64,000 bases of DNA from Patescibacteria group bacterium (GCA_038206135.1 JBBRBD010000002.1:2896-66895), one strand, 5' to 3'. Positions 33,434 through 61,495 are shown, counted from the stretch's first letter. Notes: a model not told the origin generated them from the sequence alone. Made by a program: numbers and translations.

Positions 33434-33516
33434 GGTGGGTTCGCATAGCGGCCAATTGCACCGGTTTCGAAAACCGGAGGGGTAACCCTTCACAGGTTCA
33501 AATCCTGTACCCACCG
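33434..33516 (+). tRNA. tRNA-Ser (anticodon CGA)
   Basis: Acceptor GGTGGGT/ACCCACC. Anticodon stem CCGGT/ACCGG with loop TTCGAAA. Long variable arm. T-loop TTCAAAT. Confidence 0.75.
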
Positions 33517-33548
33517 CAAGGCGCGTGAAACCTGAAGTTAAAGTATAA

Positions 33549-33636
33549 GGAGAGGTCGCATAGTGGCCTAGTGCAGCGGTTTACTAAACCGCCATATCGC
33601 AAGATATCGAGGGTTCGAATCCCTCCCTCTCCGCCA
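33549..33636 (+). tRNA. Class II (long variable arm) tRNA with apparent anticodon ACT (A34) and encoded CCA. A Ser-type body with an unusual anticodon.
   Basis: Acceptor GGAGAGG/CCTCTCC plus G plus CCA. D stem GCA/TGC (3 bp, Ser-like). Anticodon stem GCGGT/ACCGC with loop TTACTAA. 17-nt variable arm. T-arm GAGGG TTCGAAT CCCTC. Confidence 0.5.
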
Positions 33637-37824: not shown

Positions 37825-37906
37825 GGAGGTGTCGCCTAGTGGCTATGGCACACGCTTGGAAAGCGTGCAGGGCAACCTGTCGTGGGTTCGAGTCCCACCA
37901 CCTCCG
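37825..37906 (+). tRNA. tRNA-Ser (anticodon GGA)
   Basis: Acceptor GGAGGTG/CACCTCC. Anticodon stem CACGC/GCGTG with loop TTGGAAA. Long variable arm. T-loop TTCGAGT. Confidence 0.75.
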
Positions 37907-37912
37907 CAACGA

Positions 37913-37986
37913 GTATCCGTAGCTCAATTGGATAGAGCATCGGCCTCCGAAGCTGAAGGTTAGCAGTTCAAATCTGCTCGGGTACA
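37913..37986 (+). tRNA. tRNA-Arg (anticodon CCG)
   Basis: Acceptor GTATCCG/CGGGTAC. Anticodon stem TCGGC/GCTGA with loop CTCCGAA. T-loop TTCAAAT. Confidence 0.75.
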
Positions 37987-37999
37987 CAATCAAAGATCT

Positions 38000-45848: not shown

Positions 45849-45920
45849 TTCCCCTGTAGCTCAATGGCAGAGCAATTCGCTGTTAACGAAAAGGTTGTAG
45901 GTTCGAGTCCTACCGGGGGA
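45849..45920 (+). tRNA. tRNA-Asn (anticodon GTT)
   Basis: Acceptor TCCCCTG/CGGGGGA (U1-A72, as in many tRNA-Asn). D stem GCTC/GAGC. Anticodon loop CTGTTAA. T-arm GTAGG TTCGAGT CCTAC. Confidence 0.75.
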
Positions 45921-46374
45921 GCTAAAGACCTATAGCGTTGACTTCTCGCTTATCTTGAACTAAAATCACCGAAATCGTATTAGAGACCTACGCAAAAAGA
46001 AGGCTTTAAAGTAATAGCAGAAATGCAAGGTAATGGTTTTACGATATTGAATAATCGAGTAAATGGTTATTACACAATATTGAGCCACAACCACTCATCA
46101 GCGTCATCCGGAACCGAAACTCTTTATCAAATGAGTAAAGGTACTTTTGGGGTGGAGCAATTCGAATACTTGGATGTGTTTACTAAATGGTATAGACAGT
46201 ATTGATGCTTCCTTCCTTGAGAGTAGTCCCGTAAAAGGTGGTATTCTAAAAGAGATAATGTTGAATTTCTTCTTATGAGCAAAGTACAACAGAGGGTTGG
46301 TACCTTCCTAGAACAGTAAAGTGAGGGGTTAATCCTGTTTACATATTGAATTACCCAAAGCGTAATAACATATA

Positions 46375-47013
46375 TTAATTATGCAAAAAATTCTTGAAAC
46401 TAGGGAATGTCTGTTCTATTGAAGATATCTCTTCCAAAGATAATAAAATTTTAATAGCCTCTATACTTTCTTCTGTTTTGTCTGGAGTGTGTATGACATT
46501 AGAAATGATCATTTTAATTTGTTCTGGCGTAGGATTTTCCATAGATATTTTAGGTACTGGAAGTCTGAGTATTCCACGGATGCCTTTACCTTCTCTATAA
46601 ATCTTTTGAGAACTGAAATCATTGATTTGTTCCCACCCTTTGATCTCTTTAATTGTTTCTAACAATTCTTCTTGTTCAAGATCAGATTTTATTAGAAAAA
46701 AACAAGCTAAGTCTTTACAATATTCCTTTTTCATCGCGGAATAATACTTGGTTCCAATATCTTCTTTATAAAAAACCTCAAATATTTGTTGATAGTCCTT
46801 TATCTCGAGCGGTCTGTAAAATGTTTTTACTATTTGCACTCTTTTTAGATTATCAATATCTCGCTTGTTCAAATGCATATACCTCATATACCTATCTGTT
46901 TTTTCACATAAAATACGCTCTATGGTTATTTCCAAGCTCTCTTTTACAGCATGCGGCTTTACCATCACTAGGCAGAAAGAGTTTTTTTTAATTATTTTTG
47001 AGGTACTTAACAT
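46375..47013 (-). CDS. Divergent nucleoside-diphosphate-kinase-like protein
   Basis: 212 aa. N-terminal FCLVMVKPHAV resembles the NDK (t)fimIKPDgv motif. ISNVIHTPDKTEESIEAIKILL resembles the NDK N(I/V)IHGSD active-site region. Diverges elsewhere. Confidence 0.4.
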   Translation of the reverse strand: MLSTSKIIKKNSFCLVMVKPHAVKESLEITIERILCEKTDRYMRYMHLNKRDIDNLKRVQIVKTFYRPLEIKDYQQIFEVFYKEDIGTKYYSAMKKEYCKDLACFFLIKSDLEQEELLETIKEIKGWEQINDFSSQKIYREGKGIRGILRLPVPKISMENPTPEQIKMIISNVIHTPDKTEESIEAIKILLSLEEISSIEQTFPSFKNFLHN

Positions 47014-47057
47014 AATGTTGTTCGTAACTTGTCTTCCAGATGGTATAATCTGAACTC

Positions 47058-48281
47058 ATGAACATATATTTTACCAAGAAGTCTATAGAAGACCAGGACT
47101 ACGAATTTGTAGAGCGAAAAGGGATAGGACATCCAGATACTCTTTCTGACGCCTTGGCTGAAAAATTGTCTGTTAGATATTCGAACTATACTTTAGAAAA
47201 ATACGGAGCAGTACTACATCATAATTTCGATAAAGTCGGGCTCTTAGGAGGTGCTTCATACGTTACCTTTGGGGAAGGGCATTTAATTAAACCAATTAGA
47301 GTTCTTATCAATGGTCGTGCTTCAACCAGATTTGGTGACGAAGAAATTCCTGTTAAAGACATGTTAATTTCATGGACTAAAGATTTTTTGAAATTAAAGT
47401 TTCCGATGATAGACACAAATAAAGATTTGGAGTTTCATTATAACTTAAGCAATCAGAGCAGCCCCGGTAAGACTGAGGAATTTGAATCGACAAATGCACC
47501 AAGAAAACATTGGTTTGAACCTCGCAAGTTGGAGGATTTGCCCGAATTAAAAAAGCTAGTCTCAAATGATACATCCTTGGGAGTCGGTTATGCCCCATAT
47601 AGCATATTAGAGCAACTTATCTTAGATATTGAAAACACGCTTAATTCAGAGAATTTCAAAAAAGATAATCCTTGGATTGGATCAGATATTAAGATAATGG
47701 GCTTTAGAAATCTTGATAGTTTTGGAATTACGATGTGTATTCCTCAAATAGCGAATCATGTAAAGTCTGCGGAAGAATATAAAAAGAACATGACAAAAGC
47801 GCATGAAACTATTATGCAAATTGCTGAAAAATTAGGAGTAAATAAATTAGAGCTTAACTTTAACACCAGAGACAATTTCTTAACAATGGAATTATATTTA
47901 ACTGCAATTGGTTCATCTATAGAAAGTGGTGACGAAGGCCTCGTTGGACGAGGAAATAGAATAAATGGTGTGATATCTCCAACACGACCAATGAGTATGG
48001 AGGGGGCATGTGGGAAAAACCCTGTTTACCATATCGGGAAGGTATATTATGTCGCGGCGAATGAAATAAGTAAAAAAATTTATCAGAAGTTTAATGTTCC
48101 TTGTGAAGTAGCGTTGATAAGCCAAAGTGGTAGGGATTTGCTTGATCCGTGGGCAATTTTTATTACATTGCCAGAGAATGTAAAAGATACAGAAGAGATT
48201 AAGGAATTAGTAGAAAAAGAAGTTAGTTCAATCCCTAATATTACGAATCTTTTGTTAAAAGAGAAAATTCAATTATTTTAA
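47058..48281 (+). CDS. S-adenosylmethionine synthetase, archaeal-type (MAT)
   Basis: 407 aa. VERKGIGHPDTLSDALAE, VLHHNFDKVGLLGG and LINGRAS closely parallel the Methanocaldococcus-type MAT blocks (VERKGLGHPDSICDGIAE / ILHHNTDQVELVGG / LLSGRAT). Not the bacterial MetK GHPDK pattern. Confidence 0.8.
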   Translation: MNIYFTKKSIEDQDYEFVERKGIGHPDTLSDALAEKLSVRYSNYTLEKYGAVLHHNFDKVGLLGGASYVTFGEGHLIKPIRVLINGRASTRFGDEEIPVKDMLISWTKDFLKLKFPMIDTNKDLEFHYNLSNQSSPGKTEEFESTNAPRKHWFEPRKLEDLPELKKLVSNDTSLGVGYAPYSILEQLILDIENTLNSENFKKDNPWIGSDIKIMGFRNLDSFGITMCIPQIANHVKSAEEYKKNMTKAHETIMQIAEKLGVNKLELNFNTRDNFLTMELYLTAIGSSIESGDEGLVGRGNRINGVISPTRPMSMEGACGKNPVYHIGKVYYVAANEISKKIYQKFNVPCEVALISQSGRDLLDPWAIFITLPENVKDTEEIKELVEKEVSSIPNITNLLLKEKIQLF

Positions 48282-48286
48282 TAAAT

Positions 48287-49453
48287 ATGAATATGGAAAG
48301 GGCTGAAAAAAGAAAAACAGAGCCCACTGAACTGAATGGTGATGTTATTGTTCAAGGTTTGGGCTTGGTTTTGGATAAAAACGATAACAACTTTTTTCAG
48401 TTTAAACCTTCGTTTGTCGATCGACCTGCATCCAAAGATGTTTTAAACACAGAGTCACTAGGTAAGCCCGAAGAGTTACAAAAGTACTTTCCAGGAATCA
48501 AATTAGTAGATCCAGACTCTGTTTGCCGACCCACGGGGGATACCACTTTTTTTACTTCTGCAGGCTTCCAACACTTAGAAACATTGATGAGAGAAAACAC
48601 AGAGGTGGATGGGCAGTCCTTTCTTATATCTCAACCTGTAATCAGGAGTCAATTCATGGACAAAGTTAAAGAAGGAACCTCTTCTTCTTTTATAAACTTC
48701 TCTATAGAGTCCGTTGGTGCTAATCCCAGTGAATTTATAACATTAAGTAATCAATTTATTGAACTGTTGGAAGGATTGAATATTAACAAAGAAGATGTGC
48801 GATTCCAAATAGAAAGCAAGCAGGATAAATGGGGTGGTAAAAAATTTACAAAGACAGTATGGACTACTTACATAGATGGCGTTGAAGTGGGAGAAGGCGT
48901 TTACATACATGATTATCCTATTACTCAAGAAGTCAAAGTTCCGATTGCTGATATTGGATTTGGAATTGAAAGAGTGAATTGGGTAATAGGTGCTGAGAAG
49001 CATTATTTTTCAGAGTTCAGTGATTATTATGATAAAGCAGACGAAGATACTGTGGCCTCTGTAATTGACCCCATCAGGACTATGGTCTTAATTGCAGGAG
49101 AAGGGATCAAACCATCTTCGCACGATCAAGGATATCGCTTAAGACAACTATCAAAGAGATTTGTGCAACGAAATCTAGTAACCAATTTTCACTTGGATGA
49201 GTTAGTCATAAGGTCATCTAAATTTTGGGAACAATGGGGATATCGTCCAACTCTTGATGGTGAAGAATTACTTGACGTCATACGCGTAGAGAATGAAAGA
49301 AATTACAATGGATTGTTCCTAGAAACCCTTCAACGGGAAGAGGGCTCTCAGATTTATGTTGACATAAATCAGCCAACTTCTAAGTTCTTTAATCAGTTAG
49401 AATTCTCATTACCAAAACAGATGATCGATACAGTCACTAAGAAATTAAAATGA
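48287..49453 (+). CDS. Hypothetical protein with a class-II aminoacyl-tRNA-synthetase-like motif-3 (GFGIERV). Possible aaRS-paralog/amino-acid ligase.
   Basis: 388 aa. VPIADIGFGIERVNWVIG resembles class II aaRS motif 3 (GfGlERl). Otherwise unrecognised. Confidence 0.35.
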   Translation: MNMERAEKRKTEPTELNGDVIVQGLGLVLDKNDNNFFQFKPSFVDRPASKDVLNTESLGKPEELQKYFPGIKLVDPDSVCRPTGDTTFFTSAGFQHLETLMRENTEVDGQSFLISQPVIRSQFMDKVKEGTSSSFINFSIESVGANPSEFITLSNQFIELLEGLNINKEDVRFQIESKQDKWGGKKFTKTVWTTYIDGVEVGEGVYIHDYPITQEVKVPIADIGFGIERVNWVIGAEKHYFSEFSDYYDKADEDTVASVIDPIRTMVLIAGEGIKPSSHDQGYRLRQLSKRFVQRNLVTNFHLDELVIRSSKFWEQWGYRPTLDGEELLDVIRVENERNYNGLFLETLQREEGSQIYVDINQPTSKFFNQLEFSLPKQMIDTVTKKLK

Positions 49454-50106
49454 AAAAAGGAAAAATAATAATAAGTGGAGGAGGGGATCTTGATGTTAGT
49501 TCAGTAATAGATAAAAGGTTTTTCTCATTACTTGGGCAAAATTCCAAGATACTATATATTCCCATTGCATTGAATAGAAGCACGCTGGGATATGAGTCTT
49601 GTTATGATTGGTTCTCGACAGTCATATCTAAGCACGTAGGCAGAAAAGAGATTGATTATACAATGTTGTTGGAAGGGGATGTCGTTCCAGATTTGCAATT
49701 ATTTAATTCAATTTATATTGGTGGTGGAAATACCTTTAAGTTATTAGATTATGTAATAAGAAGTGGTCTAGACAATAAGCTTCTTACTTATTTAAAAAAA
49801 GGAGGAATTGTTTACGGGGGAAGCGCCGGAGCAATTATCCTTGGAAAAGACATTAGAACTGTTAAAGAAGAAAACAATAATAACTATTCTCATCATAAAG
49901 GTCTGGATTTGTTGGGAGGCAGATCTCTCATTTGTCACTATAACAAAGGACTCGATGTTGATATCTCTGAGTCATCAAAGAATTTAAAAACAGAAATTTT
50001 GGCACTGTCTGAGGAATCCGGTATTGTACTTAATTTAGATGGAAACATAAATGAAAAGGTAGGGACTGTGACTGTTTTTAATGGTGAAAATAAATATCTC
50101 CTATGA
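49450..50106 (+). CDS. Peptidase S51 (dipeptidase E/cyanophycinase-like)
   Basis: YIGGGNTFKLLDY…GGIVYGGSAGAIILG matches the S51 GGGNT…G.SAGA catalytic-Ser region. Confidence 0.65.
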   Translation: MKKGKIIISGGGDLDVSSVIDKRFFSLLGQNSKILYIPIALNRSTLGYESCYDWFSTVISKHVGRKEIDYTMLLEGDVVPDLQLFNSIYIGGGNTFKLLDYVIRSGLDNKLLTYLKKGGIVYGGSAGAIILGKDIRTVKEENNNNYSHHKGLDLLGGRSLICHYNKGLDVDISESSKNLKTEILALSEESGIVLNLDGNINEKVGTVTVFNGENKYLL

Positions 50107-51290
50107 GATTGATGTTTCTTACTTTATCTCCACTTTCTTCAAATGCAGGGCATTTATCTAGACTTAAAGGCGAACTTGAATATCTAATGAATTCAAACGA
50201 GATCTCCATTCTGTGTCTCTATAAAAAGCCAGATGATGATGCCACGAAGAAAAAATATAAAGGAATTTCATTTTTTCATTTCCCAATTGAATTTGAGGGA
50301 TGGAATGTCAAAGATCAGGGGAAAGTATCAGAAAATATCCAAATATTCATTGATAAAGTAGAACCAGATCTTGTTGTACTACAGATGGAAGTATGGGATT
50401 TAATGAGAGAATTAGGAAAAAAATTAAAGGGATCGACTACATTTGCAGCTGTTGTACACGCGATGCCCTTTTTGGTTGCGCCTACCGAACCAACAGGGGA
50501 ATTTAAGGAAGACGTCATAGAATACGCCAATTCGGGAATACAAGAATACCGAAAAGACTATGTATTAAGGCACTTTGAAGAGGCAGAGCGTGTTTTTAGG
50601 GATGTGAGCATAATTGCAAACAACAATACTGTGGCTTTTTACTTCAACAAGTATTTCAAATCGGTGCCAATTTCAGTTTTAGCTCCTTCTGCCATTGTAA
50701 AGTCTGATCCACAGCTAATAAGCAACAAGTTGAAATACGATTTTGCTTATATGGCAAGAGTCGAAAAAGGCAAAGGGGTAGAATATTTATCAGAAATTTT
50801 GGAAAAAACATCAATTCTGCTTAAAAGGAAGGTTCGTCTGGCTATTCTCGGTAGAACTGACGATTCATTTAGTGAAGTAGAATTACAAAAACTATTATCC
50901 AGTAAGAATGTCTTCTTTGATGTTGAGTTCTTTGGATGGGCAGATGATTCAACAAAAGTATCTGTATTACCTCACTCTGGAGTGTTTTTATATCCCTCAA
51001 GCTATGACAACTATCCTACGGTTGTAAACGAAGCTTTGTCTTTTGGGTTGCCCGTTGTGACTTGGAATGTGCCCTTTTATAGTCAAAACTATAGAAACAC
51101 TAACGCGGTAGAAGTTGCTGAACCTTTTAATACTACTAAGTTTGCAGATTTGGCGGTGCATTCGCTAGAAAATAGATATAATCTTTCTCCTCAGGCAATT
51201 GCCTTTATAAACTCATTTCCTTCACTGAGTGAAGTCGCAAAATTAGATACTATTTTATTTCAAAACTTAAAAGTAAATAAAAATGAATAG
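50103..51290 (+). CDS. GT-B glycosyltransferase (GT4-like)
   Basis: C-terminal FLYPSSYDNYPTVVNEALSFGLPVVT matches the GT4 E.fg.v.lEAma.G.PVv motif. Confidence 0.65.
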   Translation: MRLMFLTLSPLSSNAGHLSRLKGELEYLMNSNEISILCLYKKPDDDATKKKYKGISFFHFPIEFEGWNVKDQGKVSENIQIFIDKVEPDLVVLQMEVWDLMRELGKKLKGSTTFAAVVHAMPFLVAPTEPTGEFKEDVIEYANSGIQEYRKDYVLRHFEEAERVFRDVSIIANNNTVAFYFNKYFKSVPISVLAPSAIVKSDPQLISNKLKYDFAYMARVEKGKGVEYLSEILEKTSILLKRKVRLAILGRTDDSFSEVELQKLLSSKNVFFDVEFFGWADDSTKVSVLPHSGVFLYPSSYDNYPTVVNEALSFGLPVVTWNVPFYSQNYRNTNAVEVAEPFNTTKFADLAVHSLENRYNLSPQAIAFINSFPSLSEVAKLDTILFQNLKVNKNE

Positions 51291-52032
51291 TACTTCTCTC
51301 AAACAATTGTTCATTCCAGATAGACCAGTAGTCTTTCTACATGCACATTGTGATGATGAGTCTTTCCTTTCCGCCGGTTTGTTAAATAAATTGTGCGATT
51401 TAGGGAGGCAGTGCATCGTCATATATGGAGCTGCAGCTACGGTACCTGGGGAAGAGAAAACAGTGATAAGACAGCAACAAACAATAGAGGCATGCTCAAT
51501 TCTAGGAATAGACGCTGTAATATTTCTTAAATACTGTGAGCCACGTTATTCGGGAGTTCCTCTGATAAATCAAAAGACAAGTGAAATAAGTAGAGAAGTT
51601 TTAGAAGTCCTCAAATTGAGGAATGTTTCAATGCCTATCAATTTAATTTCATACGATAAAAATGGAGGATACGGAAATAAAGATCACAAAGTTATACATA
51701 AAGTCGGTCGAGAAATTAGAGATAATTATTCAGATGTCTCACTCTTTGAGGTAACCTTAAATAGAGATAAAATTAAAGATTGGATAGCGGATGCAAAAAC
51801 AAGATTAAGTCCTGAATCGCTACCTCAACTAGAATATTGGTCTGAAAACTTTGGGCTATTGAGTAACAAGATTCAGTTTGGGTACGAACTGACTAATAAA
51901 GAATTAGAGCTTAAACGCAAAGCTCTTTCTTTGCACACGTTTTACAATAAACCTGACATTTTCCCTTTATCCTTGAATACATTCGATTTTAAGAATGTAC
52001 TTGGAACTGAATATATTCATATTCCTAGCTAG
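51283..52032 (+). CDS. PIG-L/LmbE-family N-acetylglucosaminyl deacetylase
   Basis: VVFLHAHCDDESFLSAG matches the LmbE HPDDE zinc-binding motif. Confidence 0.7.
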   Translation: MNSTSLKQLFIPDRPVVFLHAHCDDESFLSAGLLNKLCDLGRQCIVIYGAAATVPGEEKTVIRQQQTIEACSILGIDAVIFLKYCEPRYSGVPLINQKTSEISREVLEVLKLRNVSMPINLISYDKNGGYGNKDHKVIHKVGREIRDNYSDVSLFEVTLNRDKIKDWIADAKTRLSPESLPQLEYWSENFGLLSNKIQFGYELTNKELELKRKALSLHTFYNKPDIFPLSLNTFDFKNVLGTEYIHIPS

Positions 52033-52169
52033 AGATTTGTACAATGAGTTAAGTGCTTAACTATAATTCTTCAAATTTTGTGATGTAGACCAACTACCCT
52101 TTTAAAGTTTGTATACCAAAGGATTTATATATACTTCTCATTTGTATAAGTTCAATATTTATTTCAACT

Positions 52170-52202
52170 TCTCTGTTCCTGAACATGTTTACTAGGGGGA
52201 GC
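52170..52202 (+). repeat. tRNA-3'-half-like repeat copy A (TCTCTGTTCCTGAACATGTTTACTAGGGGGAGC). Candidate att-site remnant.
   Basis: 33/33 identical to copy B at 55501. Ends in GGGGGAGC, like the 3' end of tRNA-Asn at 45913-45921. Confidence 0.6.
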
Positions 52203-52270
52203 AACGTAATTTTAGCCTTGAATTTTTTTTACCCCAAGCTGGATGTTCGAACCTTTGGTATAATACTTCT

Positions 52271-52759
52271 ATGTCAGAAAGAATTAATTCCTTACTAGCA
52301 GAGGGACTAGCTAAAGGCTATGTAGGAACAATAAAACCAGAAGCCATTCAAAGATCTGGTTTTTCCGGAAAAGCAAATGATTTTCTCAGCACTAATGGTG
52401 GACATTATCACGATGAGTGGTTTGCAGATGACAACGGCGGAGGACAGGAGCTCGTAGAAACTTCGGAAGAAAAGGGCACGAGACTTTATGCAGGGGGAGT
52501 AATTCCAACTGAAGAGCTTCAATCTCTTGGCTTCACAACAAAAGATGTAATATCTCGTTTGATAACTAGTGTTAGAGAGCTAAAAGACAAAACAAGACTC
52601 CATGAGCCATGCTCTCTAGAGCTTCCTGATGGATGGAAATATAAATACGAAATACTCAAAAGAAGCGAAGAAGTTCCACTAACCATCGGTTATGAGTCAA
52701 TTGAATTTAATGGCAGGGAAGTATTTGCTCACGGTCATATGATCTCTCCTATAAAATAG
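52271..52759 (+). CDS. Hypothetical protein (162 aa)
   Basis: ORF only. Confidence 0.4.
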   Translation: MSERINSLLAEGLAKGYVGTIKPEAIQRSGFSGKANDFLSTNGGHYHDEWFADDNGGGQELVETSEEKGTRLYAGGVIPTEELQSLGFTTKDVISRLITSVRELKDKTRLHEPCSLELPDGWKYKYEILKRSEEVPLTIGYESIEFNGREVFAHGHMISPIK

Positions 52760-52879
52760 GTTCTGAACAAGTCTATGAGGTGGAGCTTTAGCTATTAAGA
52801 CAATCGACTTTGCATACCTCGAGAAAGCATGCATGTACCTTTGAAAAAAAATGGGTGCCTTAATTGTAATCTAGTTTAA

Positions 52880-53140
52880 TGTAGTATATATTTTCGGAAC
52901 TATTATCTTCATAAATATAAACTGCAAAATATCGAATTTGTTTACTTAGCTGATGCAACTAATAAAATCTCAGATAGTGATGAGGAGGTTAGTATGCTTG
53001 AGTGGTATTCTTTAGATAATTTGCCCTCAAAAGAGGAAATGGCATTTGACCACGGAGATGACTTAGAAATTTATAGCAACTTTTTAAAAGAAAAGCTTAC
53101 TTTACCAGTAATAGGTAAATTTAGTGATTCAGGTAAGTAG
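52880..53140 (+). pseudogene. Start-less remnant of a Nudix-like hydrolase C-terminus
   Basis: Open frame from a stop at 52877 to TAG at 53138, translating …VYLADATNKISDSDEEVSMLEWYSLDNLPSKEEMAFDHGDDLEIYSNFLKEK…, a typical Nudix C-terminal region. No upstream start or N-terminal Nudix box. Confidence 0.3.
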
Positions 53141-53291
53141 AGGTCTTGTTTGCAACTTCTTTATTTCATTCCATCTGTGTCTTAGCTCTCCAATGTAGCG
53201 AATATCCTGAAAAGCATGTATTATAGCCTCGAAATCTATGGTTATATTAGTCCAAGGCTCAGGGAGCTGTTTGCTACAATAGCGGTATTAC

Positions 53292-53471
53292 ATGAGAAAA
53301 ATAATCGTTCATGAATTTATAAGTCTTGATGGAGTGATCCAGGCGCCAGGTGTAGTTGTTGGTCAGCCGACCCAAACGCAACCTGCGAATGAAGCACTTG
53401 CCTTCAATAACTTTACCAAAGACCCCGGTTGGGGGGATTGGTACAAGAGTGATACTTGGGGCAAAAAGTAG
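53292..53471 (+). pseudogene. Truncated N-terminal fragment (59 aa) of a RibD_C/dihydrofolate-reductase-like (YwjB/YyaP family) gene
   Basis: MRKIIVHEFISLDGVIQAPG is the characteristic N-terminus of about 180-aa RibD_C proteins. The ORF stops after 59 codons. Confidence 0.4.
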
Positions 53472-53519
53472 ACTGAACTGGTCTTCTGGGTCAGACATTT
53501 ATTTGTCTGGCCCTTCTTT

Positions 53520-54239
53520 TTATTTAAGAAGTTTATTTAAGGCAGGTTCTTGTCTATATCCATGGGAGAAACCGTAAACTACAAAAACACTTTTTCCCAA
53601 GTTCCATTCTTCAACTGTTTTTTCAACAATATGAACATCCCTGTAATCGCTTGAGGCTCTTGCGACAGCATTAACGACAGTATCTTTTCTTGAAGGGTTG
53701 ATTATCGTATAAAAAAAGCCTTTTTCGTTAATGTTAAACTCATCACCAAATAATTTAATGTGAGTCTTTTTCATGTTTTCCAAGCTAAAGTCAAAGTCTG
53801 TCCATCCAGATTCCTTTTTATCAGTGTCCAAGAATCTTTGAACATACTTTTCAAAATCTTCGCTTGTGTTTTTGTTTAAAAATTGGTTTACAACCCTTGC
53901 GAAGTAATAATATTGAACTTCTTCCTTAGAAAAGTCATTTAATAAAACATTATCTACATTTTCTCTTGACGGCTCAGGTGAAATAATTTCTATATTATCT
54001 TTTTTGGATAAGTAGGTGAGTAAGCCACCTTCGCCATCTCTTTTTACCATTGCATCTTTGTTTCCATTTGGATTTCGAAGCCCCCCTTCATTCATGGCAA
54101 CTGCTTTTGATTTATCAGTAACCCTAGACATAAACTCATCCCAGTACGCTTCAATATCAGGAAGCATGGGGTGTTTGGGATCGTTTACATGGCTTGCTCC
54201 ATAGTAGTAAAGATACTGTTTACCGTTAGTTATACTCAC
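53520..54239 (-). CDS. Hypothetical protein (239 aa)
   Basis: ORF only. Confidence 0.4.
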   Translation of the reverse strand: MSITNGKQYLYYYGASHVNDPKHPMLPDIEAYWDEFMSRVTDKSKAVAMNEGGLRNPNGNKDAMVKRDGEGGLLTYLSKKDNIEIISPEPSRENVDNVLLNDFSKEEVQYYYFARVVNQFLNKNTSEDFEKYVQRFLDTDKKESGWTDFDFSLENMKKTHIKLFGDEFNINEKGFFYTIINPSRKDTVVNAVARASSDYRDVHIVEKTVEEWNLGKSVFVVYGFSHGYRQEPALNKLLK

Positions 54240-54273
54240 TTGCTAAAACAATTTAGTAAGTGATATATTTTAA

Positions 54274-54699
54274 GTGATGTATCATTTGTATTTGATGGGA
54301 GGAGAAGAAGAGGAGTTTAAGGAGCGGTTGAGAAGTGAGCGAGACGTGAAGAAATGGAGGAGGTTGCAAGCGGTGTATTTAAGAGGTCAAAGAAAATCTA
54401 CACAGATGATTGCGGAGAATTTAGGAGTAAACAGAGACACAATCACGTTGTGGGTAAAATTGTACCGATCAGGAGGGCTGGAAGGATTAACGAATTTAAA
54501 GTATGAGCATCAAGGTCGAAGTTCAAAGTTGGGAGTCTATCAACGAGAGATTGATCTACTAACAGACAAGGAACGTATATCAACGATGAGCTGTTTGGCC
54601 AAGCGGATCAAAGAGTTGTATGGGGTGGAGGTTGAGGAGAGTTGGTTATCCCGGTGGTGTAAAAAAAACTCAATTTGTCTTTCAAGAAGACCAGATTAG
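54274..54699 (+). CDS. IS630-family transposase OrfA (HTH DNA-binding part)
   Basis: Winged-helix/HTH-like LRGQRKSTQMIAENLGVNRDTITLWVKLYRSGG. Confidence 0.6.
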   Translation: MMYHLYLMGGEEEEFKERLRSERDVKKWRRLQAVYLRGQRKSTQMIAENLGVNRDTITLWVKLYRSGGLEGLTNLKYEHQGRSSKLGVYQREIDLLTDKERISTMSCLAKRIKELYGVEVEESWLSRWCKKNSICLSRRPD

Positions 54700-55328
54700 T
54701 GCCTGGGAAGTTACCTGAGGTTGATGTTCAGGAAAATTTTCGGAACAAGATTGATGTGTATTTAAAGCGAGCTGGGAAGGGAGAGATCGAGTTGTATTTT
54801 TTTGATCCCTGTCACTGTATGCACAACAATGTGAATGGATATGAGTGGCAGAAGAAAGGTAAGGGAGGAACCAAGTACATAAAGGCCAATAGTGGTAGGC
54901 AAAGGTTAAATGTGGTTGGAGCACTTAATGCCATAACGAAGAAGCCGTATGTATTTTTAACTGAGGCCAACTGTGATCAAAGACTAATATGTATGTATTT
55001 GAAGAGTTTACGTAAACAACATCCGGATCGAGTAAAACAAATTGTGTTGATTTTAGACAATGCGCCTTACAACCATAGTTTCTCAGTAAGCAAGATAGCC
55101 AAGCGATTGAATATCGAGCTTGAATTTCTGCCTGCGTATTGTCCCAATCTCAACTTAATTGAACGGTTGTGGAAGTTTTTGAAGAAGAAGACAAAGACCA
55201 ATAACTATTGTGAGAAGTTTGCAGACTTTCAAAATACCATCCTACAATTTTTCGAAAACATAGAAACTTTTCGTGATGAACTGGATTCTTTACTCACTAC
55301 CAATTTCGAGATTATTCAAACAAGGTAG
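54675..55328 (+). CDS. IS630-family transposase OrfB (DDE catalytic part)
   Basis: DDE-like residues in conserved IS630/Tc1 blocks. Frameshifted relative to OrfA. Confidence 0.65.
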   Translation: MSFKKTRLVPGKLPEVDVQENFRNKIDVYLKRAGKGEIELYFFDPCHCMHNNVNGYEWQKKGKGGTKYIKANSGRQRLNVVGALNAITKKPYVFLTEANCDQRLICMYLKSLRKQHPDRVKQIVLILDNAPYNHSFSVSKIAKRLNIELEFLPAYCPNLNLIERLWKFLKKKTKTNNYCEKFADFQNTILQFFENIETFRDELDSLLTTNFEIIQTR

Positions 55329-55421
55329 TATATCTCAAATTTTTTAGGAGATGAGACTTTCTCAAGTTTGGAGTAATCATCGTAATCCATTATTAAATTT
55401 TTAATATCGTTCATGGGGGAA

Positions 55422-56262
55422 TTATATCAGAGGAAACAGACTCAAGTTAAAGCTTTCGTTTAATGTTTGAATGTTTCGTAGACTAACACCAAATTCTATT
55501 TCTCTGTTCCTGAACATGTTTACTAGGGGGAGCATAGCGTTTCTTATTATAACCTGATGGTTCTCTATTAAGGACGCAAAGATTGGTGTTGGTTCGGTCT
55601 TCAAAATCACCTTATTTTCGATTACGATTTTCTCGTAAAAAAATCTTAGGTAGTGTCGCTTCATAAACATTGGTGCTTCTAGGTAAGTCTTGTGGATATT
55701 TCTAGTAAAGGCAAGGACTTCTTCAATCAAATCCATATCTATTCGTGATTTGTTATCTACATCTTGTGCTTGTGCATCGAGGTTTCGAATGGCTTCCTCA
55801 AGCTCTACATGTTTACGTTTATATGTGTCTCGGTCAATCGTACCATCAAGCAATCTGTCTTCAAGCTGATTTCTTTTAGCCTCAAAGCCTGTTTTTTGGT
55901 TTAGTTGAAGGTCTTCTTCCAGAGAACTCTTGGTATTCGGGCTCTTCTTGTATCTCTGCAAAGTAGTCGTCAAAAGCGGAGAATAGTTCTAAATGATAGT
56001 ATCCATCGTCAATTTGCTCATAGGGGTCAAGTTCAACATATATAATGCTTTGTATTCTGTTTCCTACCTTAAGAATTTTGAAAACTTTCTCGTCATATTG
56101 AAGCTTCTTAAATATGTTATCTAATTCGAGCCCGTTGTAATTGTTATTAAGGTCATGCGTTGCGTGTATTTTTACAGGCTCACCTGTGGGCGTGATAGTC
56201 CTCGCATCATCAATACGATTTAACAGAAAGTATATTTTTTCTTTGCCGCTCATCATTGTCAT
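55422..56262 (-). pseudogene. Frameshifted gene (two overlapping ORFs, 55882..56262 and 55422..55973). The C-terminal part resembles the coiled-coil/C-terminal region of large serine recombinases. Its 3' end runs through repeat copy B.
   Basis: About 90-nt overlap of two same-strand ORFs in different frames. RNQLEDRLLDGTIDRDTYKRKHVELEEAIRNLDAQ…KRHYLRFFYEKIVIENKVILKT resembles serine-recombinase C-terminal segments. No catalytic Ser-domain seen. Confidence 0.3.
55501..55533 (+). repeat. tRNA-3'-half-like repeat copy B. Candidate att-site remnant.
   Basis: Identical 33-mer to copy A. Followed by CATAGCGTTTC, which matches the tRNA-Asn downstream flank (TATAGCGTTGAC) with a 9-nt deletion. Confidence 0.6.
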
Positions 56263-56309
56263 TACATTTTTAACTTTAGTTATCGTATTTTAACAAATAA
56301 CTTCATGCT

Positions 56310-57617
56310 TTGAGTTTGACATTTAAAACTTGTATCGCTATTATTGGCTTTATTGAAAAAGTAATGAAAACTAAATTGTTAATTGACATAGGCTCTTCTA
56401 CTGTAAAGGTCTACAAACAGACCCCTGCCTCTCTCTCTCTCCTTTTGGCCCGCTCAATCCCTTTTAAGACAGATTTTGACCCAATAAAAGGTATCGCTGA
56501 GTCTGCAAAGAAAGAACTGTATGAATTGATTACTGAGGTGAAAGAGAAGAACCCTAATACATCTATCAAAATTTTTGCTACTGCTTTATACAGAAAACTT
56601 GAACCAGAAACCAGAAAGTCATTTGTTGACGAGTTCTTTATGAGAACAGGACTACACTTCAATATCATTTCTCAGGAATTGGAAAGCTTTTATTTGCAGA
56701 TAGCCCTTGTCGGTAAATACAACGCAGACAAACCCATTCTCCTAATAAACATTGGAGGTGGTTCTACTGAGCTTGTTGTAATATATGGCAAAGAAGCAAT
56801 AGAAACAAAGAATGTGGATTTAGGTGTAGGAACAGTATTAACCGAATTTTCAAATATAAATGACCCCAAATCTGGCGTTTCACTTGATAACGTGAAGAAA
56901 TTTGTGTCAGAGAAACTTCCTTCTTTAGAAAACAAGGTTGAAACAGCACTCTACTCGGGAGGTGAGCTGGATTATATGCAACTTGCGAAATATAAACTTA
57001 ATACAAATAAGCTATTTAAAGATGCTGACCACCCCTCATTGATTTCTTTAAAAGATTTTTCATCTAAAAACGAAGAAGTGTTTGATAAAATTACACTGAA
57101 AGAATTGGAGGAGCTAATGCCTGACAATCCTTCTTGGATGCATGGAGCAAGAGCTTGCAGTGCCCTAGCGCAAGCTATTTGCGAAAAATATGGAATTGAA
57201 ACAATCGTCCCTTCAAACTCAAATCTGGTAAACGGTGCGGCAAGACAGGAATTTAGACACGTTACTTTAAGCGGAAGCTTCAGAAAGCACTTGGACTATA
57301 TCCTTAAAGTTAGAAAAACTCTTGTGGATAATGGAGTTGAAGTTTTGAGTCCAAGATTTACTGAACCTAAGAATCCAGGCGAAGAATTTGTTGTGTTCTC
57401 TGGAGAAGAAGGAATGAAGCCACTTGAATTGGAAAGACACCATCTTGATTCAATTGATAAAAGTGATGCTCTAATTATTTGCGACCCAGAAGGATATGTA
57501 GGAGCATCTGCTTTAATTGAGATTGGGTATGCTCAGGCTTTATGTAAAAAAATTGTGTTTGCAGAAAAGCCTGAAGAGTTCATGCTTAATACGCTACCTG
57601 CTGAATTTGGCATTTGA
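56310..57617 (+). CDS. Two-domain protein: N-terminal Ppx/GppA-like (ASKHA) phosphatase domain plus C-terminal nucleoside-2-deoxyribosyltransferase-like Rossmann domain
   Basis: LLIDIGSSTVKVY resembles the Ppx/GppA N-terminal DlGSNs motif. C-terminal IICDPEGYVGASALIEIGYAQALCKKIVF resembles NDT/LOG-like folds. Confidence 0.45.
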   Translation: MSLTFKTCIAIIGFIEKVMKTKLLIDIGSSTVKVYKQTPASLSLLLARSIPFKTDFDPIKGIAESAKKELYELITEVKEKNPNTSIKIFATALYRKLEPETRKSFVDEFFMRTGLHFNIISQELESFYLQIALVGKYNADKPILLINIGGGSTELVVIYGKEAIETKNVDLGVGTVLTEFSNINDPKSGVSLDNVKKFVSEKLPSLENKVETALYSGGELDYMQLAKYKLNTNKLFKDADHPSLISLKDFSSKNEEVFDKITLKELEELMPDNPSWMHGARACSALAQAICEKYGIETIVPSNSNLVNGAARQEFRHVTLSGSFRKHLDYILKVRKTLVDNGVEVLSPRFTEPKNPGEEFVVFSGEEGMKPLELERHHLDSIDKSDALIICDPEGYVGASALIEIGYAQALCKKIVFAEKPEEFMLNTLPAEFGI

Positions 57618-58267
57618 TAACAATGCCAGAGCGAGAGAAAATGCCCGAACATCTTCAATTACTTTCTGAAAGATTTTATCTTCAAGACTCATTGACAGTT
57701 GCTCCTGCGCTTGTCGGTTGTATTATTGAAACTAATAAAGACGGGGTGTCTGTTTTAGGGAGAATAACAGAAACTGAAGCATACCCCTCGTATGATGCCG
57801 CGTCTCACGCATTTCAAAGCAAACGGACTCCAAGAACTGAAATTCAATTTGGTAAAGGCGGTAGTTTATATGTCTATCAAATAATGGGTTTGCACCTAAT
57901 GACATCAATCGTTGTCGGACAAGAAGAAGTTGCAGATGTGGTATTTATCCGTTCAATAGAGCCGCTTTCAGGCATTGAAGCAATGAAGAGAAGGCGAGGC
58001 TATTTAGGCGAGAATATCAGGCGAATAGCTTCAGGTCCAGGGATGCTTTCTGTTGCTTTGGGTATAACTAAAGATGACAATGCCGTTGCAATTTATGGTG
58101 AAGTCTCTCCTGTAAGAGTTTACAAAGATATTTCTTATGCAGGCAAGGTAGGAAGTGGTATGAGAATTAATCTTGGAGTGCATGGGGTTACTGACGAGGA
58201 AGCCAAACAGGCGATAGAACAGCCTTGGAGGTTTTTTGATGAGACATCTGAGTTTCTGAGCAAATAA
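57614..58267 (+). CDS. 3-methyladenine DNA glycosylase (AAG/MPG family)
   Basis: APALVGCII…GRITETEAYPSYDAASHAFQSKRTPRTEIQFGKGGSLYVYQIMGLH…IRSIEPLSGIE…GPGMLSVALGI matches Pur_DNA_glyco conserved blocks. Confidence 0.8.
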   Translation: MITMPEREKMPEHLQLLSERFYLQDSLTVAPALVGCIIETNKDGVSVLGRITETEAYPSYDAASHAFQSKRTPRTEIQFGKGGSLYVYQIMGLHLMTSIVVGQEEVADVVFIRSIEPLSGIEAMKRRRGYLGENIRRIASGPGMLSVALGITKDDNAVAIYGEVSPVRVYKDISYAGKVGSGMRINLGVHGVTDEEAKQAIEQPWRFFDETSEFLSK

Positions 58268-58348
58268 TTATTTTATGTTATACCTAGGGGATGCTGTGGA
58301 AATTCTGAGGATAGTATTTTCAATTCTTGTAAACCAAAGCTGAGTTCT

Positions 58349-58409
58349 ATCTCTTGGTTGCAGAACAAGTCCTTTAGGGGGAGCTAAAGTCCCATAGCTT
58401 TGACAAATT
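58349..58409 (+). repeat. tRNA-Asn-3'-end-like repeat copy D (…TTAGGGGGAGCTAAAGTCCCATAGCTTTGAC)
   Basis: Matches the tRNA-Asn 3' end plus 21 nt of its downstream flank (CGGGGGAGCTAAAGACCTATAGCGTTGAC at 45913-45941) with few mismatches. Confidence 0.6.
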
Positions 58410-58473
58410 GCTTCTTTTAGGCTAGAATACTAGTCAGAAATTGTCATTATCCGTTTTAGTTTGGAGGTAGAAA

Positions 58474-58776
58474 ATGACTGCACAACAAAAGCCTATTGAA
58501 GGTCTGAAGTTGATTTGCCACAACGCTCGTGGAGTGAATGAGCCGGACGATACGTCGTTTCCCTACAAGTTGGAAGTGAGTCTGCGTCCGCCTGAGTTCA
58601 TGATAATCGCATTTTTCGGCCTGTACGGCGGCAGTGAAGAGCTTGTTGTTCGAGGGATGACCAAGGAAGGATTGGAGCAATGCATTGAAGAGAACGGCTT
58701 CAAGACTCATCCTCGTCTTCGGACACTGAGGGTAACTGGCCCAGAAGGAGAAGTCATCCTTTCTATTACAAAATAG
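58474..58776 (+). CDS. Hypothetical protein (100 aa)
   Basis: ORF flanked by repeat copies D and C. Confidence 0.4.
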   Translation: MTAQQKPIEGLKLICHNARGVNEPDDTSFPYKLEVSLRPPEFMIIAFFGLYGGSEELVVRGMTKEGLEQCIEENGFKTHPRLRTLRVTGPEGEVILSITK

Positions 58777-58925
58777 CGGCTGCACCCAATCTGCGAAACC
58801 TCTCCGATTCATTTGATTCAGGGGAGGTTTTTATTGGTCAAAAAAAGTAATTCACTTCAAGATATTGACATCTCAAATGTTTCAAATAGTGTTTTTATCT
58901 GTGGAAGTTGAATACCAATCTCTAT

Positions 58926-58975
58926 TTGTCTGTTCCTGAACATGTTTACCAAGGGGAGCTAAAGACCCATAGCTT
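58926..58975 (+). repeat. Repeat copy C (TGTCTGTTCCTGAACATGTTTACCAAGGGGAGCTAAAGACCCATAGCTTG). Chimeric form that joins the A/B core to the tRNA-Asn flank.
   Basis: 5' part matches copies A/B. 3' part matches the tRNA-Asn 3' end plus flank. Confidence 0.6.
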
Positions 58976-59034
58976 GATTTTTGCCGTAAGCCATGTTATT
59001 GTTTTTAAGCGAATTTCTTCATAAGGAGGTTAGG

Positions 59035-59289
59035 ATGTCCGACACTATGAGTGATGCTGATAAGAAATATCAGCAATTAGTCGAAAAGTCTTTTGAAGCC
59101 GCGGGTTTACCAGAGGTTGATGTGAAGGACTTGGAGACAGGTACGTACACAAATGCCCAGATTGGCGAGAAGCTACGTAGCAATCCGTTGAAGCTGGTTC
59201 AGCTTCTAATGCGTCTATCAGTTATTGGAGGCGATGTTGCTTCAAAGCGAAGCATTCTCTCATTTGCTGTTGATATGCCAGAAGACTAA
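59035..59289 (+). CDS. Hypothetical small protein (84 aa)
   Basis: Strong RBS AAGGAGG before the ATG at 59035. Confidence 0.4.
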   Translation: MSDTMSDADKKYQQLVEKSFEAAGLPEVDVKDLETGTYTNAQIGEKLRSNPLKLVQLLMRLSVIGGDVASKRSILSFAVDMPED

Positions 59290-59307
59290 TTTGCTGTGTA
59301 TTAGTTA

Positions 59308-59337
59308 AAAAGGCCTTTCTCTTGGGAAAGGCTTTTA
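59308..59337 (+). terminator. Rho-independent terminator
   Basis: AAAGGCCTTTC tcttgg GAAAGGCTTTT followed by ATT. Confidence 0.5.
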
Positions 59338-59379
59338 TTATGATAATAAATCTCCAATATAACTTTCTTGACTTTTTAT

Positions 59380-59420
59380 AAAATGAGTTCGAAATGTATG
59401 AACTTTGGAAAGCAAGCACC
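59380..59420 (+). repeat. T-arm-like repeat copy F (AAATGAGTTCGAAATGTATGAACTTTGGAAAGC)
   Basis: Paralogous to copy G. Contains a TTCGAA T-loop-like hairpin. Confidence 0.5.
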
Positions 59421-59530
59421 CTGTAGTGTTGATTGTTGCTCTATTTTTTGTCTATGTGAAATAGATCCGTATAGAATTGCAGTTTGTTGCATATTATGAG
59501 ATAATATCACGCATTTTGGTATAGAAAGGG

Positions 59531-59848
59531 ATGATCGTGAAGTCAAGAACAATTCTGTTAGTTTTAATTTCTCTGTTTCTGGGGTTCGGACCTATGACGC
59601 AAAATGTCGTTCCACCTGTGGCGGGGCAGGACTTAGTTCAGACTGCAAACTGTACTCAAACAGTAAAAACAGTACCTGTACAGTTTTCGCCTTATGGCAA
59701 TGAAGGCATGAACGCGTACTTACTTGTATCACCAGCCACATGTAATTTGCCACATTTGTATTGTATTTACATGTTCCAAAATACTGGTGGTGGCCTATCA
59801 TGTGAGATTGTATCTCAATTAGTGGTAGATCAATTCATTACCCAGTGA
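59531..59848 (+). CDS. Small secreted protein (105 aa, signal peptide, 4 Cys)
   Basis: N-terminal hydrophobic leader TILLVLISLFLGFGPMTQN. Confidence 0.4.
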   Translation: MIVKSRTILLVLISLFLGFGPMTQNVVPPVAGQDLVQTANCTQTVKTVPVQFSPYGNEGMNAYLLVSPATCNLPHLYCIYMFQNTGGGLSCEIVSQLVVDQFITQ

Positions 59849-59951
59849 AAATGGTAATCATGTAACAGTGAACGACCTTAAGTGTGAGCAATCCAAAACG
59901 GGATGCTCACACTTTTTTATTGCCCCAATATATAATTTTCTTCAGCTTCCA

Positions 59952-59993
59952 TGAAATGAGTTCGAAGCGCATGAACTTGGGGGAGCTATGCAA
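59952..59993 (+). repeat. T-arm-like repeat copy G (GAAATGAGTTCGAAGCGCATGAACTTGGGGGAGCTATGCAAG)
   Basis: Shares the GAGTTCGAA…GAACTTGG(G)GAGC core with copy F and the GGGGGAGC end with the tRNA-Asn 3' end. Sits immediately upstream of the fic gene. Confidence 0.5.
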
Positions 59994-60068
59994 GTTTGTT
60001 TACATTACTTGACAAGATGTATACAAACAACTATACTTTGTTTACATCTTAAGGGAAGTGTATACAAT

Positions 60069-61220: not shown

Positions 61221-61495
61221 TAAAATTGATTTTCATTTGTGCCCATTATATGGAGCAGAAAGACTAAATACTTAGCAGTTGCTGTGGCTGCTCAAGGTCT
61301 AATTCAGATTGAAATGCCATCTTTGTTGTCTGTTAGAAGTTAAACTAATTTCTTAATTACTTCGTCAACTGCGGGGAGTAATGGGATCGCGGGTGATTCT
61401 TCTTTGTTTTTGATTATAGAGCTGGAAACTAGAACGACTTTTATATATTGTCATTCTCATAGTCGTGAGTATCACCAAAAACTGCTTTCTTTTCT

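Follow-up and report, generated by a model that had tools for sequence, protein, structure and literature searches.

A probable accretion island of large serine recombinase elements at tRNA-Asn in a Patescibacteria genome

A 64,000-nucleotide (nt) stretch of DNA from a Patescibacteria group bacterium (GCA_038206135.1 JBBRBD010000002.1:2896-66895; termed the window) carries a tRNA-Asn gene followed by a series of short repeats. The question raised by this locus is what the repeats are and how the DNA between them came to lie there. A first-pass annotation took them for at least six copies of the tRNA 3′ end, left by successive tyrosine- or serine-integrase insertions. The repeats are real and non-random, and their number is raised here to seven junctions, one at 53141–53269 (junction F) having been missed earlier. 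The reading favored here, with a probability of roughly 0.78, is that positions 45.9–60 kb form an accretion island anchored on tRNA-Asn and built by large serine recombinases (LSRs) of one group found in Patescibacteria (Candidate Phyla Radiation, CPR), which are tiny uncultured bacteria. Serine integrases are thus retained from the earlier proposal and tyrosine integrases are not, since the repeats and a gene remnant prove to be LSR sequence.

Junctions downstream of tRNA-Asn

The intact target gene, tRNA-Asn, closes one end of the array. The anchor, the junctions and the integrase remnant are as follows; L numbers denote loci from other genomes, and a tail is the 3′ coding end of an integrase gene.

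45850–45922, plus strand: tRNA-Asn(GTT), called by ARAGORN, 67.9 bits with the Rfam tRNA model; attachment-site anchor (B arm).
52109–52202, minus strand: junction A, type-1 tail LPLVNMFRNREVEINIELIQ... and core GGGGGAGC at 52195–52202; tblastn match to L001 integrase residues 501–531 (E-value = 5.6e-4).
53141–53269, minus strand: junction F, type-3 tail LPEPWTNITIDFEAIIHAFQDIRYIGELRHRWNEIKKLQTRP at 53141–53262 and core AGGGAGC at 53263–53269 (tblastn, repeats).
55422–55533, minus strand: junction B, type-1 tail and core at 55526–55533, read through in frame by the integrase remnant to its right.
55443–55934, minus strand: 5′-truncated LSR gene, with no second integrase remnant in the window (E3 P′ arm at 55534–55934; tblastn, nhmmer, homologues).
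58276–58428, minus strand: junction C′, type-1b tail LPLKDLFCNQEIELSFGLQELKIL..., core at 58377–58384, then T-type flank; match to the L001 integrase (E-value = 0.006).
58860–58980, minus strand: junction C, type-1 tail LPLVNMFRNRQIEIGIQLPQIKTLFETF..., core AGGGGAGC at 58952–58959, then T-type flank; match to the L001 integrase (E-value = 4.7e-7).
59357–59413, minus strand: junction D, type-2 tail and degenerate core TGGAAAGC; 77% identity to copy E.
59930–59986, minus strand: junction E, type-2 tail LPQVHALRTHFMEAEENY and core GGGGGAGC.
61252–61264, plus strand: possible eighth junction, GGAGC-AG-AAAGAC just 3′ of the Fic gene, with no recognizable tail to its left; not established.

The 3′-terminal 8 nt of tRNA-Asn, GGGGGAGC, form the core common to the junctions, the tRNA-identical part being 5–8 nt at each. 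The core recurs with ends at 52202, 53269, 55533, 58384, 58959, 59413 and 59986. All seven cores are of the GG(G/A)AGC type and lie on the plus strand 3′ of tRNA-Asn, and the exact repeat is just 5–8 nt. A repeat search yields two families, one with copies A (52117–52202), B (55448–55533), C′ (58345–58404) and C (58874–58975), the other with D (59357–59413) and E (59930–59986), which share 77% identity over 57 nt. An alignment anchored on ...GGGGAGC places a 7–8-nt core in all copies. The repeats described earlier were recovered. The 33-mer is exact at 52170 and 55501, with a third copy (3 mismatches) at 58927 where shuffled sequences lead one to expect 0. The tRNA-Asn 3′ end plus flank (45906–45966) and positions 58368–58428 share 74% identity over 61 nt, and GGGGAGCTAAAGACCTATAGC recurs at 58378 (90%) and 58953 (95%). 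The flank of copy B, said to carry a 9-nt deletion, does so and reads GGGGGAGC followed by ATAGCGTT. The further pair near 59380 and 59952 corresponds to D and E.

The description of the repeats as tRNA-3′-end-like applies to the last 5–8 nt, and loosely to about 30 nt in C′. The remainder is not displaced tRNA, and no pseudo-tRNA was called by ARAGORN or Rfam in 46–61 kb. Outside the core, the 50–120-nt repeats are the 3′ coding tail of an LSR gene, on the minus strand and left of the core. On the minus strand, CTC CCC (GGGGAG in reverse complement, coding for Leu-Pro) comes first in every copy and the frame then stays open, giving LPLVNMFRNREIEF... for A, B and C, LPLKDLFCNQEIEL... for C′ and LPQVHALRTHF... 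for E. Over the 40 core-proximal nt, copy A shares 95% identity with the tail of B and 85% with that of C. With divergent second-copy integrases as tblastn queries, the junction F tail shows 55% identity to residues 525–564 of L005a (E-value = 8e-9). The type-2 tail of junction E shows 72% identity (tblastn, E-value = 5.7e-5) to the C-terminus of the L050 integrase, LPNVSALRTHFLETEEEY. The anatomy of the junctions and the homology of tails and remnant to LSRs are thus direct observations.

The tails evolve like coding sequence, changes concentrating at third codon positions and avoiding second ones. Summed pairwise differences among type-1 tails are 243/153/254 by codon position, and the type-3 tails of junction F and L005a differ at 10/10/23, with 11 synonymous codon changes. 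The tails fall into at least three types, implying three or more integrase lineages. An AlphaFold model of the remnant plus tail is uninformative for the tail because the predicted local distance difference test score (pLDDT) is <50 across it. Dyad symmetry of the junctions, meant to locate the crossover, was not significant (z = −0.6 to 2.5).

The integrase remnant lies across junction B. It displays 75% identity (tblastn, E-value = 1e-55) to residues 371–496 of the L002 integrase, and just the residues equivalent to ~368–530 of full-length relatives are left. A nhmmer profile of 24 P′ arms also matches it (E-value = 4.8e-24). The 183-amino acid (aa) open reading frame (ORF) at 55422–55973 reads ...IIRNAM-LP-LVNMFRNREIEF..., in which the LP codons, CTCCCC, are GGGGAG read in reverse complement. 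The 27 homologues of this ORF are Microgenomates/Patescibacteria proteins, several with PF13408/PF07508 (zinc-ribbon/recombinase); some end in the same kind of tail and others in ...LPRVDSNHEP, the peptide obtained when a tRNA T-arm is translated in reverse complement. The remnant itself has no Pfam match, the PF00239 catalytic domain, PF07508 and PF13408 being deleted from the window copy. The window therefore holds an LSR pseudogene fragment and not an LSR. The recombinase-like remnant of the first-pass annotation is accordingly a recombinase, 5′-truncated and with no frameshift shown, and the view that the integrases have since been lost is upheld, all but this one remnant being gone.

Every homologue of the remnant among the matches listed is ≤299 aa, and pseudogenized integrases seem common in the family; in L059 (201–1820) a same-family integrase exists as two ORFs, one of 224 aa with the Resolvase part and one of 299 aa with the Zn ribbon and a type-1 tail. 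A second recombinase candidate in the window, at 16952–17254, was rejected, as the tblastn match was false and the protein is a membrane protein.

The integrase group in other Patescibacteria

A scan of species-representative genomes gave 55 loci, all from Patescibacteria-type metagenome-assembled genomes, several of which carry obviously wrong 'Gammaproteobacteria' labels. Full-length integrase genes (≥480 aa; about 500–550 aa) are found in 37 of the 55. The full-length homologues L001, L002 and L051 show Resolvase (PF00239), Recombinase and Zn_ribbon_recom domains (Pfam), and the family therefore consists of large serine recombinases. In 26 loci a convergent tRNA-Asn(gtt), called by ARAGORN, overlaps the integrase 3′ end or lies directly against it. 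In 10 further loci the neighbor at that end is a tRNA-Asn-like gene interrupted by a group I intron (Rfam RF00028), which is why ARAGORN failed there. Thus the integrase is convergent with an adjoining tRNA-Asn or tRNA-Asn-like gene in 36/55 loci, and its last codons read the tRNA in reverse complement. Past the tRNA, these loci carry ATAGnGTTTnTTATTATAACC..., which encodes ...VIIRNxxLP and matches the sequence after the copy-B core of the window. The link between family and tRNA-Asn is directly seen; by the adjacency and this flank match, the integrase group is specific for tRNA-Asn, with coding sequence that runs through the crossover site. The ORFs read across the core either into the tRNA or into a tail, which places the element attachment site (attP) core inside the integrase ORF.

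The group I introns (RF00028, 56–107 bits) are found in the tRNA-Asn-like gene beside the integrase in 11 Patescibacteria loci, all missed by ARAGORN. At least 8 display a tRNA-Asn-like acceptor/D-arm in the 5′ flank, and all have tRNA-like 3′ ends:

L001 16551–16765; L005 10419–10610; L014 10460–10661; L033 10458–10717; L049 10457–10671; L003 10475–10710.
L010 7115–7310; L018 10417–10620; L028 10418–10638; L035 10419–10704; L046 10415–10634.

Five loci (L001, L005, L037, L041, L051) contain two integrase genes in the same orientation, 4.5–9 kb apart. The proximal integrase ends in tRNA or tRNA-like sequence in L001, L005, L041 and L051, its end lying beyond the locus boundary in L037. The distal integrase ends in a recognized tail (type 1 or 3) in L001, L005 and L051 and in a non-tRNA C-terminus of other sequence in L041 and L037. 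L051 is the clearest case and reads, in order, tRNA-Asn, a 498-aa LSR, ~8 kb, a type-1 tail, the core and an older LSR remnant. In L001, L005 and L051 the tails lie 5–10 kb from the integrase body that they would join in a circle.

A pair of Blackburnbacteria loci shows that an occupied tRNA-Asn site can be targeted again. In L061, tRNA-Asn is followed by a 5.1-kb integrase-less block and then a type-1 tail, core and old LSR. L060 carries the same block (96% identical) joined to GCTCCCC and a fresh type-1 tail in place of the tRNA. Homology between the two stops inside GGAGC; this breakpoint demonstrates the re-targeting in one strain pair and places the crossover within, or at the borders of, the final ~5 nt of the tRNA. 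In L047 erosion has left ~230 nt of a newer element, flanked by the tRNA on one side and a full integrase on the other; the scar comprises 60 nt of integrase 3′ end plus a spacer and a tail. A second indel polymorphism is found near the Blackburnbacteria island, where Asp/Glu racemase and alpha/beta hydrolase genes lie upstream of a frameshifted integrase in L060 (7343–8924) and L062 (3336–4917) and are absent in L061.

At occupied (attL) sites among the 55 loci, no attR tail was found in the 10 kb upstream of the integrase, with the exception of a 40-nt repeat in L055. The cargo of these other elements gave mostly no Pfam matches, and no synteny with the flanking or cargo genes of the window was found in the 55 loci.

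Units of the array and their assembly

The junctions divide the region into the following units.

45923–45966, plus strand: T-type flank TAAAGACCTATAGCGTTGAC..., ending in a promoter-like TTGACT-17-TAAAAT.
45923–52202: E1, 6.3 kb, GC 0.351; nucleoside diphosphate kinase (NDK)-like gene (minus strand), archaeal-type S-adenosylmethionine (SAM) synthetase, 388-aa protein, peptidase S51, family 1 glycosyltransferase (GT1), PIG-L (Pfam).
52203–53269: E2a, 1.07 kb; 162-aa ORF 52271–52759 and a short gene fragment 52994–53140; no Pfam match.
53270–55533: E2b, 2.26 kb; RibD_C-like N-terminal fragment 53292–53471, 239-aa ORF (minus strand), IS630-type transposase ORFs 54274–55328.
55534–58384: E3, 2.85 kb; integrase remnant, 126-aa ORF (minus strand), Ppx/GppA-family protein, methylpurine DNA glycosylase (Pfam).
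58385–58959, plus strand: E4, 575 bp; promoter-like site, 100-aa ORF 58474–58776, hairpin and U-tract ~58795–58837, type-1 tail, core.
58960–59413, plus strand: E5, 454 bp; 84/98-aa ORF (59035 or 58993 to 59289), terminator hairpin ~59309–59340, type-2 tail, degenerate core.
59414–59986, plus strand: E6, 573 bp; 105-aa ORF 59531–59848, terminator hairpin ~59880–59920, type-2 tail, core.
59988–61220, plus strand: Fic gene (SoFic-type), Pfam Fic_N and Fic; full-length PADLOC match to SoFic (E-value = 3.5e-106).

The window thus displays a pile-up of at least seven insertions, with units of 0.45–6.3 kb. In an incoming element, attP would span the 3′ end of the integrase gene that the element carries, in the order integrase body (P′), core GGAGC and a tail of 35–60 codons (P). 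The integrase would recombine attP with the last few nt of tRNA-Asn. After integration the gene would face the tRNA, with final codons coming from the tRNA reverse complement, and the tail would stay at the far end of the element beside its former downstream sequence. The tRNA half-site would be rebuilt intact, making repeat insertion possible; later elements would insert there and push older ones outward, and older integrase genes would take on the tail of the newcomer and then decay. We infer the order of insertion, and the units are presumably no longer mobile. The three tandem loci that are informative have, at the junction, the tail of the newer element, the integrase of which lies 5–10 kb off beside the tRNA, so that tail and integrase would be joined only in the excised circle. 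The circle form would then encode integrase plus tail, and the tail would be translated there; integration would swap it for 1–12 tRNA-encoded residues.

Foreign cargo supports the island. The 100-aa ORF of E4 has a GC of 0.485 (0.505 at third codon positions) against 0.378 for the whole window, and a phage-like contig of 359 kb carries homologues of it; the region also contains an IS630 element and gene fragments. E1, E2a, E2b and E4–E6 are att-flanked units with tail and core at their boundaries, in which no recombinase (tblastn) and no transfer-gene domain (Pfam, larger ORFs) was found.

Several points weigh against accretion by LSRs. No intact integrase was found in the 64-kb window with tblastn using all family members, for which reason the array is described as largely a graveyard. 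E1, which is tRNA-proximal and presumed youngest, has no integrase remnant detectable by tblastn; its GC of 0.351 is only modestly off its surroundings, and its cargo looks metabolic and not obviously mobile. The assignment of tail types to lineages rests on just three tandem loci. The window locus has no empty site, alternative array or synteny comparison to set beside it, because no close relative of the source genome was found; look-ups of exact proteins yielded none, and a 254-aa protein of the left flank has no homologue but itself.

The main loose end is the T-type flank. The sequence TAAAGACCyATAGCkTTGAy is found to the right of the core at tRNA-Asn, C′ (58384) and C (58959), and in degenerate form at D (59413). 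The motif GGAGC-N0-2-AAAGWC has 4 matches in the window, that at 61252 included, against 0.19 expected. This flank is absent from the 55 other loci, and a nhmmer search with the 24 P′ arms (E-value = 7.6 and 15) does not show it to be integrase-derived. Its presence at four cores is unexplained by simple conservative recombination unless it is borne by the element.

The flank bears on an alternative that overlaps the accretion reading, in which E4–E6, and perhaps E1, are naturally integrase-less cassettes and not eroded wrecks. Each would consist of a half-site, promoter, one ORF, terminator and tail, and an LSR encoded elsewhere would excise and insert it in trans, with a functional likeness to cis-mobilizable elements (CIMEs), pseudo-SCC (staphylococcal cassette chromosome) elements and integron cassettes. 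Three consecutive units (575, 454 and 573 bp) each carry one intact ORF and a terminator, namely a hairpin plus U-tract with z = −3.1, −3.1 and −4.3 in E4, E5 and E6. The two ORFs tested, those of E4 and E5, are real conserved genes. Unit ends are conserved over about the length of a half-site (~20 nt of T-type flank and the 40 nt of tail nearest the core), and integrase-less blocks are found beside tRNA-Asn elsewhere, as in L061. In E4 a promoter-like TTGACA-17-TAGAAT (58400–58428, plus strand) lies 16 nt past core C′. Scan-called −35/−10 pairs also lie 16 nt past the core at the tRNA and 23 nt past core E, and by eye, though not scan-called, a −35-like TTGATT is found at +15/+16 past C and D, that is in E5 and E6. 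The 61-nt repeat that the tRNA flank has in common with C′ stops exactly at the −10 box. However, promoter-like matches in the region are no commoner than in shuffles (44 vs 50.4), L047 shows that deletion alone can shrink an element to ~230 nt, and the sample is three units. Evidence of mobility is nil, no second copy of any unit having been found in the 55 loci or in metagenome scans. E4–E6 could be deletion survivors of the L047 kind, and the cassette explanation is unlikely, if well short of negligible.

A more far-reaching proposal is slightly more doubtful again. Here the LSRs would be complete only in the excised circle, and the exchange of a conserved 35–60-aa tail for 1–12 tRNA-encoded residues could act as an isoform switch that sets directionality or activity, with no separate directionality factor. 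Such enzymes might also service promoter-ORF-terminator cassettes, as an integron analogue at tRNA-Asn.

Islands at tRNA genes are most commonly made by tyrosine integrases, and the repeats could on that ground be displaced tRNA 3′ ends from a crossover inside the tRNA gene; the 74% identity of copy C′ to the tRNA 3′ end and flank over 61 nt agrees with this. However, no tyrosine recombinase or phage-integrase domain was found by Pfam in 20 ORFs of ≥84 aa within 45.3–63 kb, every tail is homologous to serine recombinase C-termini, exact tRNA identity is limited to 5–8 nt, and the L060/L061 breakpoint falls in the last 5 nt of the tRNA, all of which makes a classical tyrosine-integrase island very improbable. 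A dispersed short repeat family (like repetitive extragenic palindromes or miniature inverted-repeat transposable elements) or a local tandem duplication, unrelated to integration, would account for short, intergenic copies and is just as improbable, since every copy in the 64 kb is found on the downstream side of tRNA-Asn and in one orientation, six junctions show no hairpin folding (z −0.83 to +1.39 vs shuffles), the units between share no sequence and differ in GC, and homologous tails elsewhere are attached to integrase genes.

Known systems, cargo and neighboring genes

The closest described system is that of the Dehalococcoides ssrA genomic islands. These are tandem and are bounded by the transfer-messenger RNA (tmRNA) gene or a 20-bp repeat of its 3′ end, and their serine recombinase DsiB (~540 aa) lies on the reverse strand next to attL (PMC3146451). 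Many of them have no integration module and were proposed to be cis-mobilizable and acquired by accretion; staphylococcal SCCmec arrays are also discussed in that study (PMC3146451). The array accreted at tRNA-Asn resembles them in having tandem units 3′ of a single small RNA gene, direct repeats of its 3′ end and one orientation, and a presence/absence polymorphism of units like theirs is seen at the analogous Blackburnbacteria locus (L060 vs L061). It differs in its target (tRNA-Asn and not tmRNA), its hosts (Patescibacteria and not Chloroflexi) and its much smaller units of 0.45–6.3 kb. Whereas the ssrA repeat is 20 bp, the exact repeat is 5–8 nt here; the apparent repeat is a 50–120-nt tail coding sequence, with the integrase ORF running through the crossover. 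The tRNA-Asn of the window has no adjacent integrase, in contrast to 36/55 related loci, and neither a six-gene integration module nor a partner like DsiA was noticed, although no systematic search was made.

SCCmec and pseudo-SCC composite islands lie at rlmH (orfX) and are made by Ccr LSRs. In common with SCCmec are LSR insertion at the 3′ end of a conserved housekeeping gene, a re-targetable site, arrays bounded by short repeats and integrase-less cassettes. Target gene, host and cargo differ, and the SCC attachment site lies outside the ccr coding sequence. E1, E2a, E2b and E4–E6, att-flanked and with neither recombinase nor transfer gene, are in this respect like CIMEs and pseudo-SCC elements. 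In archaeal viruses and plasmids, SSV-type integrases have attP in the ORF, so that integration into a tRNA gene splits the integrase gene and leftover pieces mark captured DNA. The attP core is inside the integrase ORF here too. SSV-type integrases are, however, tyrosine enzymes broken into N- and C-terminal pieces, whereas the present family has a resolvase-type serine catalytic domain; integration here would swap the last 35–60 codons for 1–12 tRNA-encoded codons, and the integrated gene would retain every catalytic and DNA-binding domain. The one-directional ~0.5-kb single-ORF units between recombination-site repeats superficially resemble integron cassettes. No IntI tyrosine recombinase was found in the ORFs covered by the Pfam search, there is no attI, the repeats at six junctions have no attC-like single-strand hairpins, and where integrons rely on one Pc promoter, E4 has its own promoter-like site and E5 and E6 a weaker −35-like motif at the same offset.

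Full-text literature searches found no paper on CPR/Patescibacteria serine integrases targeting tRNA-Asn. The known part is that serine recombinases build tandem arrays by accretion at a small RNA gene; the host phylum, the tRNA-Asn target, the tail-swapping anatomy and the very small, tidy units are new. Mobile elements of CPR/Patescibacteria are barely characterized, and the data define a widespread integrase group (55 loci) with its chromosomal target mapped to the last ~5 nt of tRNA-Asn. They give a rule for spotting horizontally acquired DNA in reduced genomes, including defense genes like SoFic, and suggest a candidate site-specific integration tool for organisms only now turning genetically tractable. 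A gene-embedded attachment site with swapping of C-terminal tails is a testable regulatory idea for serine integrases. For the window, 45.9 to at least 60 kb is best annotated as accreted, largely decayed mobile DNA. The significance would rise if the tail switch or cassette mobility were true; otherwise it is moderate, and the practical message for the window is modest.

The cargo agrees in most respects with the first-pass annotation. The IS630 element, the Fic gene and an archaeal-type SAM synthetase (PF01941) are all present by Pfam. The IS630-type ORFs of E2b have helix-turn-helix and DDE_3 domains. For the truncated gene fragments named earlier, a weak match supports RibD_C (E-value = 0.047 over the first 20 aa) and no support was found for Nudix. 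The five co-directional genes at 47058–52032 in E1 have some overlapping ends and look operon-like; they encode the SAM synthetase, the 388-aa protein, peptidase S51, the GT1 glycosyltransferase and the PIG-L deacetylase, and the 388-aa protein shows a weak match to the class II core of alanyl-tRNA synthetase. In E2a, an inverted T-loop-like palindrome GGATGTTCGAACC is situated at 52240–52258, ~45 nt right of junction A and directly before an extended −10 (TGGTATAAT) and the 162-aa ORF.

Homologues of the E4 ORF are found in L056 (Joint Genome Institute contig Ga0556607_0000027, 359 kb), L057 and L058, among dozens of short co-directional unknown ORFs and near a RuvB-like ATPase, a Ser/Thr kinase and methyltransferases, a huge-phage-like context. 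The E5 ORF is a member of a family of conserved small proteins that has 40 cluster representatives, and the 105-aa ORF of E6 has at its N-terminus a hydrophobic segment that is signal-like. Metagenomes were scanned with two patterns, tail plus core and core plus T-type flank, and two viral scans were made, all without a match.

The Fic gene is either the outermost unit or the original downstream neighbor of the tRNA, and it is the sole PADLOC match in the window cargo. A promoter scan calls TTGACA-17-TATACT at 60009–60037. Repeated TGTATACAAACA / TTGTTTACA motifs are found in this promoter region (60014–60046), with a related 33-mer at 62769–62801. A 19-mer, CAAAAAGAAGG(C/A)TTTAAAG, is common to 45993–46011 (70 nt past the tRNA) and 60102–60120 (the Fic N-terminal coding region); it reads QKEGFK in both frames (z ~5 vs shuffles), is isolated and is left unexplained.

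To the left of tRNA-Asn the genes are housekeeping (dnaG, rpoD, galE). Further to the left, five tRNA-Ser and two tRNA-Arg genes are clustered at 32518–33636 and 37825–37987, one tRNA-Ser (33549–33636) having the unusual anticodon ACT. A tmRNA gene at 30242–30614 encodes a tag peptide ending in ...VPMFA.

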